A stretch of 32,831 nucleotides of DNA from Candidatus Tenderia sp. GTDB taxonomy: Bacteria > Pseudomonadota > Gammaproteobacteria > Tenderiales > Tenderiaceae. A program made the translations under genes and the position numbers. The stretch's first letter is position 1; each line of letters begins with the position of its first letter. Positions 7,369-9,527 of the stretch are shown one piece after another. Below the pieces are notes generated by a model. The model did no database searches. It was not told the origin of the DNA and saw nothing but the letters and a program-made list of their open reading frames with translations. The stretch covers positions 1 to 32,831 of the forward strand of contig JANOSY010000051.1 of the NCBI GenBank assembly GCA_031416075.1, read 5' to 3'.

Positions 7369-8277
7369 TTATCTGGGCACAAATACCCGCATGACATAGG
7401 CCGCCACCGCTGCCCGCTGTTTTTCATCCAGCACATCACGCCAGGCGGGCATGGTGGTTCCTTTTAAACCATCGCGGATCACCCCCTCCAGCCGCTGCTG
7501 CGTCATGCCTTCCAGCGTGGTGAGGTCACGGGCGTGGGGTTCGAGAAAAGTACCGATCCAATTTTTACCCGTGCCATCGGCAGCGTGACAGAAGGCACAG
7601 CTGTTGGCGGCTTGATAGAGCCGCTCCCCCTCCCGCTCCTGTGCATTCAACCCTTTAACTACGGGTGCTTTGTTATGAATTGAGTAGGGGGTTGCAGAGG
7701 ACACTGCATCGGCCTCTGGCAAGCGATGGGAGTAGCTGGTGCGCGGATAGGAGACCGGCCGTGGATCCCAGGCGATCCCCTCATCGTCAACTTTGGCCCG
7801 GTCATGACAGGTGATACAGCTGGCCATAAAGAGCTTGCGGCCCTGACGCTGTGCCGGCGTCAAGCTCTCCACAGCCCGATCCAGTGCAATCTCACCCTGG
7901 GCAAACGGGAAGGCGGCGGCGTAACGCTGGTGATTGGGCCAGCCATTGCCTGCGGTGTGGTAGCGGGTATTGGGTTTCTCACCACTCATAAATGCCTGAC
8001 GGACAAAGTCGACCACCAGCGCAATCTCCTGCTTGCTCAGTGTCTCCTTAAAACCGGCCATGGCGGTATTGTTGCGCCCCTGCGTCACTGATTGAATCAT
8101 GCGTGCACGTGGCAGCTGCGCTAACGGTGTTGTCGTAAAGTTGCGTGGCGGTGGATCCAGATAGGTGGCCGCCAGAGTTTTAGCATCGCCCGCATAACCG
8201 TGGCAAAAATAGCAGCGGAAGTTGTAAAGGTCGCGCCCCTTCTCAAAATCGGTGACGGCACGGCTGCCCGCAGCCAC
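7369..8277 (-). CDS. Triheme c-type cytochrome segment without signal peptide; frame open up to 8364, probably the C-terminal half of a frameshift-fused hexaheme protein
   Basis: CYFCH, CITCH and CAFCH heme motifs; class I domains with PPPRNFT and TAM/TTMPAW axial Met; no Sec signal and no properly spaced SD before GTG 8277. Confidence 0.85.
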   Translation of the reverse strand: MAAGSRAVTDFEKGRDLYNFRCYFCHGYAGDAKTLAATYLDPPPRNFTTTPLAQLPRARMIQSVTQGRNNTAMAGFKETLSKQEIALVVDFVRQAFMSGEKPNTRYHTAGNGWPNHQRYAAAFPFAQGEIALDRAVESLTPAQRQGRKLFMASCITCHDRAKVDDEGIAWDPRPVSYPRTSYSHRLPEADAVSSATPYSIHNKAPVVKGLNAQEREGERLYQAANSCAFCHAADGTGKNWIGTFLEPHARDLTTLEGMTQQRLEGVIRDGLKGTTMPAWRDVLDEKQRAAVAAYVMRVFVPR

Positions 8278-8330
8278 CTCTACAGTGGAGGGGATAGCGA
8301 GAGATCGTCCAGCCGTTGAAACTTCAGAGA

Positions 8331-9527
8331 TCAGTGGGCTTTTTTTTTGCCCAACTCTGCCACCTCAGCTTGGGCCTTAATCGCATCAGGATCGGGATGG
8401 ATAAAGTCCTGAAAAACAAATTCAGCCACATCGGCCAGCTGCTGCGGGGTTAACACCTTGCCCCAGGCGGGCATAACGGTGCCCGGCTTACCCAGAAATA
8501 TCGCCCTAAACAGCGCCGGGCGGTTGAGCTGCTGCCGCGATTCCGGGTTCAGAAAATTACGCGGTTTAGGTTCAATAAAGTGGGAACGGGGTCCCATGCC
8601 ATCACCGCGCACGCCGTGACAGGTACTGCAATTATCCATGTAAAAGAGGCGGCCCTTATCAAAGTCCCCCTTAAAGTCACCCGGAAAGCCGACTTTCATA
8701 TCCACTGCCGCTACTGTTGCTGGGGCCTGGTGGTTACGTGGTGCCATGGCAGCACCGGCCATACCGGTCATCGGCTGGCCATTATCACTGGCGGCAGCCA
8801 TGTTGCTCATATCGGCATCCGCAATCACCGGCCCCTTCATAAAGGTAGCACTGATGTAATCAACCACTGCCACAATCTCCGCCGCTGACAACCGGCTGGA
8901 GAACGACATCATGGCCGTGCCCGGACGGCCATGGGTGATCGAGGCCAACATCCGCGTTCGGGTCAATATGCGACGTGATTGTGGTGAGGTGAAATTACGC
9001 GGCGGCGGGTCAAGCACGGTATTGGTCCAGGTGGCACCGTTGCCACGGTCGCCATGACAGACCCGGCAGTTATCCTCAAAGATCTTTTTCCCCAACGCCA
9101 TTGGCGTGGTGGGCACAGCCGCCGCCGTTACCGGAGCAGCCTTAACGGGCGTGGCGCGGGCCATAAAACTGCTGCGAATGTAATCGACAACACCCGCTAT
9201 CTCAGCGCTGGAGAGGCGCGACTGCCACGCCACCATCGCGGTGGCGGGCTTGCCGTGGGTGACACGGTCGATCATCAGCTCACGACTCAGTGTCTTGGCG
9301 GCCTCAGCCGAGGTAAAATCACGCGGTGGTGGGTTCAGCCCAAAACGGGCACGGCTCTGACCATCGCCCTTATCTCCATGGCACACGGCACAGTTATCAC
9401 TGTAAACCTTGGCCGCCTGCTCAGCAGAAACGGCATCCGCCGCATAACCGGGCAATGCAACAGCCAACGCCACAAGTAAAGCAACCGGGTAAAAGAGGGG
9501 CTTTTTGAGCTTCAAACAATGCACCAT
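8331..9527 (-). CDS. Periplasmic triheme c-type cytochrome (three tandem class I domains)
   Basis: Sec signal (...LLVALAVALPGYA), CAVCH, CRVCH, CSTCH, each followed by P(P/K)PR(D/N)F and TAM/TVM axial-Met motifs; ends GKKKAH. Confidence 0.93.
   Translation of the reverse strand: MVHCLKLKKPLFYPVALLVALAVALPGYAADAVSAEQAAKVYSDNCAVCHGDKGDGQSRARFGLNPPPRDFTSAEAAKTLSRELMIDRVTHGKPATAMVAWQSRLSSAEIAGVVDYIRSSFMARATPVKAAPVTAAAVPTTPMALGKKIFEDNCRVCHGDRGNGATWTNTVLDPPPRNFTSPQSRRILTRTRMLASITHGRPGTAMMSFSSRLSAAEIVAVVDYISATFMKGPVIADADMSNMAAASDNGQPMTGMAGAAMAPRNHQAPATVAAVDMKVGFPGDFKGDFDKGRLFYMDNCSTCHGVRGDGMGPRSHFIEPKPRNFLNPESRQQLNRPALFRAIFLGKPGTVMPAWGKVLTPQQLADVAEFVFQDFIHPDPDAIKAQAEVAELGKKKAH
8340..8348 (-). other. 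A9 slippery site (candidate -1 ribosomal frameshift or transcriptional slippage)
   Basis: Minus strand GGC AAA AAA AAA GCC CAC TGA; the -1 frame continues AGC CCA CTG ATC... without a stop into the 7369 ORF. Confidence 0.6.

Follow-up and report, generated by a model that had tools for sequence, protein, structure and literature searches.

The window analyzed here is the whole of a 32,831-nucleotide contig (JANOSY010000051.1) of Candidatus Tenderia sp. (assembly GCA_031416075.1; Gammaproteobacteria, Tenderiales), one of 95 contigs in a draft genome of 3.49 Mb. On its minus strand, two overlapping open reading frames (ORFs), each with three CxxCH heme-binding motifs, meet at a run of nine A's (A9), and we consider here the proposal that a change of frame within this run joins them into one long cytochrome. 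The features of the junction, including a motif resembling a Shine-Dalgarno (SD) sequence, are the following.

9527..8331, minus strand: upstream 0-frame ORF of 398 amino acids with three CxxCH motifs and a signal-peptide-like N-terminus
8366-8361, minus strand: SD-like GAGGTG, 12 nucleotides before the run, present in this genus only and not a conserved part of the site
8364..8331, minus strand: the sole stretch of this genome allowing a frame change, which begins where the -1 frame opens and ends with the 0-frame stop
8348-8340, minus strand: the nine A's as read in the mRNA (T9 on the plus strand and template), the proposed slippage site
8340..7369, minus strand: downstream coding part in the -1 frame, 323 codons plus TAA, the C-terminal half of the putative long product

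The upstream ORF ends in GGC AAA AAA AAA GCC CAC TGA (stop at 8333-8331) and its C-terminus reads KKK-A-H-stop, with the three lysines coded by A9. The -1 frame is shut by TGA at 8367-8365, stays open from 8364 until it meets TAA at 7371-7369, and carries the other three CxxCH motifs. A shift at A9 would join 396 and 323 residues into a protein of 719 residues whose junction reads ...GKKK-SPLIS.... The downstream part starts with a non-hydrophobic linker of ~45 residues and lacks both a signal peptide and a conserved start codon. What the original prediction had stated about the letters of this window (the ORF ends, the position of A9, the limits of the -1 frame, the three CxxCH motifs and GAGGTG) all holds on rechecking. 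By searching Pfam profiles we found that both halves are built of class-I cytochrome c domains (PF13442, cut-off 27: 125 bits in the upstream and 101 bits in the downstream half; PF00034, cut-off 21.3: 116 and 70 bits). In a full-length MAFFT alignment, upstream halves were placed onto the downstream half because the domains are repeated.

Among 17 Tenderiales genomes (order and family coincide in this set), a downstream-half orthologue was found in 15, the own genome counted; G009 (60% complete) and G012 (95% complete) gave none at E ≤ 1e-30. The junction was readable in 13 relatives, the contig of G015 being cut off before it. All 13 have exactly nine A's followed by G, a 0-frame stop two codons on and the downstream frame in -1, and their junction flanks are otherwise diverged; one of them (G010) is a 2-contig genome. 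The orthologue of Candidatus Tenderia electrophaga likewise has A9. In this genus the linker contains a GTG (at 8277 here), but most relatives of other genera read GAG ATT or GAG ATA at that place, and there is therefore no conserved start codon at this site.

To look beyond the order, one genome per GTDB species was scanned, and the best 80 of 539 stretches coding for a relative were examined. Of these, 77 could be classified (L071, L080 and L089 are without the anchor motif), 41 with a run of at least nine A's at the junction and 36 without a run. Ten of the 41 run loci are genomes already in the family set, which leaves 31 outside it and brings the number of distinct run-bearing genomes to 45, own genome included. 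Over these 45 genomes the run is A9 in 43 and A10 in two (L039, L083), and A7 or A8 in none. The downstream frame is -1 in 44 of the 45, including L023, where the contig begins inside the upstream ORF and the frame was assigned by eye; the remaining locus (L039:3320-3329) has A10 with the downstream frame in +1. The run is followed by G in 40 genomes and by C in five, and the 0-frame stop lies 6 nucleotides past the run in 24 rows and within 12 nucleotides in most. In 18 of 45 loci a TAA of the -1 frame overlaps the first two A's, so that a shift there would be confined to the run itself or to the 18 or fewer nucleotides (at most six codons) that follow. The original prediction had proposed to look for orthologues that keep an out-of-frame A-run coding for KKK, and these are what the 13 Tenderiales relatives and the 45 genomes overall provided.

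The codons themselves show that the run is selected at the nucleotide level, since the three lysine codons within it are always AAA although only 502 of 1140 lysine codons (44%) elsewhere in these genes are AAA. At four loci (L039, L083, L101, L077) the A-run stands in a different codon phase and still has a length of 9-10. When a maximum-likelihood tree was built from downstream halves (quick search, 87 rows), run-bearing rows fell on many deep branches, more than one substitution per site apart. These patterns indicate that the run is kept beyond coding need, with the frames set such that a one-base change in the mRNA would switch the product.

The downstream half is under strong purifying selection and is functional. 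Comparison of this genome with six relatives gives a ratio of nonsynonymous to synonymous substitution rates (dN/dS) of 0.044-0.094 for this half, with one further value incomputable at saturated synonymous sites; synonymous differences are at or near saturation even within the genus (proportion of synonymous sites that differ, pS, 0.65-0.76). We also compared the leaders preceding the first heme motif of the downstream half. Between run and first heme motif, the leader is non-hydrophobic in 45 of 45 run loci (maximum 11-residue Kyte-Doolittle mean ≤1.85; 1.41 in this genome). A score of at least 2.0 and a visible Met together with a signal peptide or lipobox mark 31 of the 36 loci that have no run; a signal peptide is visible by eye in two more (L031, L085), which brings the count to 33 of 36, and in another (L046), cut by the contig start, the lipobox is still visible. 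The last two (L045, L051) have neither run nor signal peptide. Across loci, A-run and downstream export signal are thus almost perfectly complementary. Heme attachment by the cytochrome c maturation (Ccm) system requires an exported apoprotein, and a downstream protein without a signal would therefore be useless alone. This agrees with the earlier argument that the downstream half, lacking start and signal peptide, cannot work by itself. A pseudogene reading is contradicted by the dN/dS values, and an independent downstream gene by the non-conserved GTG and by the signal peptides on orthologues that are truly separate.

In Rhodocyclaceae, Burkholderiales, Gallionella, Thiohalophilus and other relatives, such separate orthologues form a two-gene arrangement, in which each gene has a signal peptide or lipobox. 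Where the overlap between the two genes of a locus without a run was short enough to read whole, it was a stop-start overlap of ATGA or GTGA in four of five cases. The separate downstream genes, mostly of Betaproteobacteria type, usually show a lipobox-like L-x-x-C after a hydrophobic stretch (lipobox-like downstream leaders: L028, L033, L054, L057, L061, L063, L081, L088, L091, L093, L094). The C-terminal module may therefore be membrane-anchored where it is a separate gene product, and the recoded or fused form would be carried by the ordinary signal peptide of the upstream half.

A third arrangement is the in-frame fusion. Using the downstream half as query, we found 13 longer homologues, of which seven (P0001-P0006 and P0008; metagenomic) are in-frame fusions of 610-670 residues with a signal peptide that align to both halves; the six-domain protein therefore exists elsewhere as an ordinary gene product. 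Two of these (P0001, P0002) fall within the run-bearing part of the tree; their values in the Shimodaira-Hasegawa-like approximate likelihood ratio test (SH-aLRT) are 91 and 81, neither of them starred. Split and fused orthologues have the same six domains as the locus studied here but need no recoding, and only the A9 form would yield the N-terminal half alone together with the fused protein, and never the C-terminal half alone. Orthologues that were always fused, or always independent with a signal peptide, had been named in advance as speaking against recoding; both forms do occur, and 45 genomes keep the run. One further homologue, P0007, is a 652-residue 'c-type cytochrome' whose N-terminal ~300 residues are rich in Arg, Ala and Pro and look like an out-of-frame reading, followed by a signal peptide, a lipobox and the domains of the downstream half; its start was probably mis-called in a high-GC genome.

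The A9 run was further compared with assemblies of other origin and with the rest of the genome. At the DNA level its length is real: contigs from three other studies (X3 8198-8862, X4 8140-8427, X8 8207-8375) run across it without a gap, and the sole indel listed over 2.2 kb in the compared contigs is one of 3 nucleotides at 9118. These are Logan consensus contigs, in which minority run-length variants are invisible, and a fourth run (X1) spans everything but may be the source of this DNA. Among 20 sequencing runs listed as containing this DNA, none is on record as RNA. The A9 at the junction is not explained by chance: the genome has 18 A/T runs of at least nine (17 of length 9 and one of length 10), and 8348-8340 alone marks the passage from one long frame to another, the first with 393 codons before the run and 2 after it, the second with 5 before and 322 after. 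Each of six other coding A/T runs checked lies within or at the end of an ordinary gene, and none joins two long frames; a dnaX-like role for the other A9 runs was rejected, as those checked belong to single ordinary genes (tape-measure, MFS, HemY, pentapeptide, DeaD, LuxR-type, DUF1302). Five of these runs are located as follows.

G000 C8:34526-34534: A9/T9 in a contractile-injection tape-measure protein
G000 C14:103034-103042: A9/T9 in an MFS transporter
G000 C17:185217-185225: A9/T9 in HemY
G000 C90:41425-41433: A9/T9 in a pentapeptide-repeat protein
G000 C4:34040-34048: A9/T9 at the C-terminal end of DeaD

Polymerase slippage on A9, if it occurs in this organism, should also produce some frameshifted transcripts from such other genes bearing A9 or T9.

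The above analyses make it very probable that programmed recoding, of either kind, yields a 398-residue triheme and a 719-residue hexaheme protein from one gene. This was the core of the original prediction, and it is supported by the conservation of the run in 45 genomes, by the complementarity of run and export signal, by the in-frame fusions and by purifying selection. In the model that we propose, standard decoding would give a Sec-exported triheme cytochrome of 398 residues, with its stop two codons past Lys-Lys-Lys. In a fraction of expression events the frame would move to -1 inside the run, and the shared signal peptide would take the resulting protein of six class-I cytochrome c domains to the periplasm, where the Ccm system, coded in the same window, would attach six hemes to it. 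RNA polymerase would slip on the T9 template and add one A in part of the transcripts, which places the frames in register at A10; a -1 tandem slip of the ribosome on A_AAA_AAA would yield the same protein and may play a part. The making of both products, their ratio and the machine that slips are inferred from the sequences compared here.

Polymerase slippage that adds one A is, in our judgment, the likeliest main route and somewhat probable. A ribosomal heptamer needs seven in-phase A's, yet all nine are kept and no locus is shorter, and the length of 9-10 is retained at the four loci where the phase is another. According to PMC5009743, nine A's or T's make bacterial RNA polymerase slip very efficiently in vivo, and the dnaX gene of Thermus thermophilus uses such a 9-nucleotide run, with mainly extra A's being added (PMC5009743). 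As one added A is what the junction needs, slippage of the Thermus dnaX type fits. This genome carries tRNA-Lys with anticodons UUU and CUU, as is noted for Thermus in PMC5009743, which points weakly in the same direction; no tRNA lies within the window.

The alternative closest to this proposal is programmed -1 ribosomal frameshifting on the in-phase A_AAA_AAA as the main route, in which the mRNA would stay A9 and two Lys-tRNAs would slip one base to give the same 719-residue protein. We consider it unlikely, and several observations nevertheless weigh on its side and against polymerase slippage. Any A9 holds an in-phase A_AAA_AAA, so that the sequence alone fits ribosomal slippage as well; the heptamer is in the right phase in 45 of 45 loci, and the 0-frame stop is close behind the site (the 24 rows at 6 nucleotides), as in Escherichia coli dnaX. 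Folding is somewhat stronger in the 60 nucleotides that follow the run (mean z -0.87, n = 45) than in control coding windows taken from these genes (mean z -0.01, n = 270; one-sided Mann-Whitney p = 1.3e-5, which is overstated since the genomes are related), and this could reflect a ribosomal stimulator in some lineages. The locus with A10 and a +1 downstream frame (L039) is not simply explained by either route, as it needs the loss of one A or the gain of two; it may be an assembly error, or could alternatively be a variant served only by polymerase slippage. Finally, the two loci without run or signal peptide (L045, L051) carry a canonical in-phase G_GGA_AAG instead, which a third locus (L037) has in addition to its A9. 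The positions of this heptamer (Pro-Gly-Lys) in the frame overlap are given below.

L037:3331-3339: in-phase G_GGA_AAG, with the 0-frame stop one codon past the heptamer
L045:1023-1031: in-phase G_GGA_AAG
L051:119-127: in-phase G_GGA_AAG

In this subclade, where two of the three have lost the A-run, G_GGA_AAG may be a ribosomal replacement for the A9 site. No convincing structure was found behind it in the three loci (z -1.87, 0.26 and 0.36), and GGGAAAG occurs somewhere in 27 of 107 loci examined, so that the heptamer is a lead only. Against ribosomal slippage as the general route, two of the nine A's are superfluous for the heptamer and yet invariant, and A7, A8 or A_AAA_AAG alone is seen at no locus. 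Nor was a conserved helix found at a fixed spacing: 14 Tenderiales sequences showed essentially none after the run (consensus -1.39 kcal/mol), and over the 45 loci the predicted helices start at scattered distances, though the better folding after the run noted above leans the other way. The 45 nucleotides upstream of the run, in which a hairpin of the nascent RNA could stimulate slippage by the polymerase, have a mean folding z of -0.48, with 4 of 45 loci below -2, figures that stand without a background control. A search of Rfam returned no known frameshift element and only a chance microRNA match (E 0.6). GAGGTG had been put forward earlier as a stimulator, but it is not a conserved feature, as an SD-like 4-mer occurs 4-25 nucleotides upstream of the run in only 14 of 45 loci. 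Moreover, polymerase slippage is to be expected on an A9 template anyway, given the efficiency described in PMC5009743.

Two further explanations would dispense with recoding during expression. Homopolymer tracts are classic contingency loci, and replication could alter the run such that subpopulations switch between a split (A9) and a fused (A10) gene; the tract itself, the two genomes with A10 and the invisibility of minority variants in consensus contigs are compatible with such phase variation. True contingency loci, however, show ON and OFF lengths among strains, whereas here the same out-of-frame length is found in 43 of 45 species-level genomes, neither A10 genome is in frame, none of the 45 has an in-frame length, and the contigs of three other studies have A9 as well. 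This alternative, which the original prediction had raised, is hence very improbable. We give hardly any credence to the explanation that nothing is programmed, be it through an error in sequencing or assembly, a gene recently disabled by a frameshift, or separate genes with a start at GTG 8277. There is indeed a GTG at that position, and annotation pipelines, as well as the accessible passages of a preprint on Tenderiales, treat the pair as two tri-heme cytochromes. Yet the run length is constant over 45 assemblies from many projects, one of them the 2-contig genome, and the GTG is not conserved; the dN/dS of 0.04-0.09 is not that of a pseudogene; and a protein without a signal peptide would receive no heme, while truly separate orthologues have their own signal peptide. 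The homopolymer error that had been considered from the start is contradicted both by A9 in 43 of 45 genomes and by the gap-free bridging contigs.

Compared with known systems, the locus most resembles Thermus thermophilus dnaX, which likewise has A9 in a cellular, non-mobile gene with the A's in the mRNA on the same strand (PMC5009743). There, RNA polymerase adds A's to give two products in a fixed ratio (tau and gamma), as described in PMC5009743, whereas slippage here is deduced from sequence comparison. The long product of Thermus dnaX is that of the 0 frame and slippage truncates it, while here standard decoding would give the short protein and slippage would add a triheme module; and the former is a replicase subunit, the latter a periplasmic cytochrome. 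E. coli dnaX shares a slippery heptamer of Lys codons, the -1 direction, a stop close behind and two isoforms, but has A_AAA_AAG with an upstream SD and a downstream stem-loop, in place of which A9 stands here, with no conserved SD-like element or stem-loop found. Two-ORF transposases of insertion sequences (IS) of the IS3 and IS630 types are joined at A-runs or A_AAA_AAG. Such joining at A-runs is mentioned for IS elements in PMC5009743. These transposases have the same layout, with orfA in the 0 frame, an orfB in the -1 frame that lacks a start of its own, and a fusion protein that arises by slippage only. The transposases are mobile, however, and the gene described here is a respiratory or electron-transfer gene of the chromosome, part of a conserved cytochrome cluster and kept vertically over deep divergence.

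Leaving aside mobile and viral genes, few bacterial genes are known for conserved recoding; prfB, dnaX, copA and csoS2 are among them. Our literature search, which left most subscription journals and the supplements of genome-wide recoding surveys outside its reach, returned no report of recoding in a bacterial c-type cytochrome. Programmed homopolymer slippage itself is known; what would be unusual is that it extends rather than truncates a cellular protein, and the breadth of its conservation. More tentatively, it is possible that the A-run length of nine is under stabilizing selection and thereby fixes the stoichiometry of a soluble triheme carrier and a hexaheme form that shares its N-terminal module, that this would be a deeply conserved case of programmed transcriptional slippage in a respiratory or extracellular-electron-transfer protein across several gammaproteobacterial lineages, and that the junction has been solved in four ways (A9 slippage, the G_GGA_AAG heptamer, in-frame fusion and two signal-peptide genes).

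A new recoding case across many uncultured sulfur-, iron- and electrode-oxidizing Gammaproteobacteria would interest the recoding field, and the coexistence of split, fused and recoded orthologues would make it a clean natural system. If the proposal is true, the cluster of Tenderiales has a triheme and a hexaheme protein and not two tri-heme cytochromes, and the downstream ORF is mis-annotated wherever a start codon has been forced on it; annotation pipelines will call such loci pseudogenes or truncated genes. On the more tentative reading above, the locus would also parallel the duality of dnaX in nature and could help to explain why carriers of two lengths are required side by side.

The genomic context is that of a conserved cytochrome cluster. 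Its other mapped members in the window are the following.

9694-10446, plus strand: pentaheme cytochrome (five CxxCH), divergent from the cytochrome pair
10431-11528, plus strand: NHL-repeat beta-propeller protein, divergent from the cytochrome pair
11590-14058: HAMP-PAS-GGDEF-EAL protein, beside the Reg_prop ORFs
14061-16461, minus strand: two adjacent Reg_prop (two-component regulator propeller) ORFs, with an overlap of ~190 nucleotides when counted from the longest starts

Also nearby are a thioredoxin-like protein, a monoheme CcoP-like cytochrome, ccmABCEFH and a MoxR/Bat operon. The cytochrome pair together with the pentaheme cytochrome, the NHL protein, the sensor and cyclic di-GMP genes and the ccm genes is the cluster described for Tenderiales. 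The preprint on this order calls the pair 'two tri-heme cytochromes' next to ccm, a pentaheme cytochrome and an NHL protein; its available passages are without the word 'frameshift'. Neither cytochrome half reached an NCBIfam equivalog, and matches to solved structures are weak (CcoP, c6, Kuenenia cytochromes). The predicted function is that of a periplasmic electron carrier in a short and a long form. The Reg_prop pair and the HAMP-PAS-GGDEF-EAL protein are probably the sensory module of the cytochrome cluster. The pentaheme and NHL ORFs overlap by 16 nucleotides, and a spacer of 166 nucleotides separates them from the cytochrome pair.

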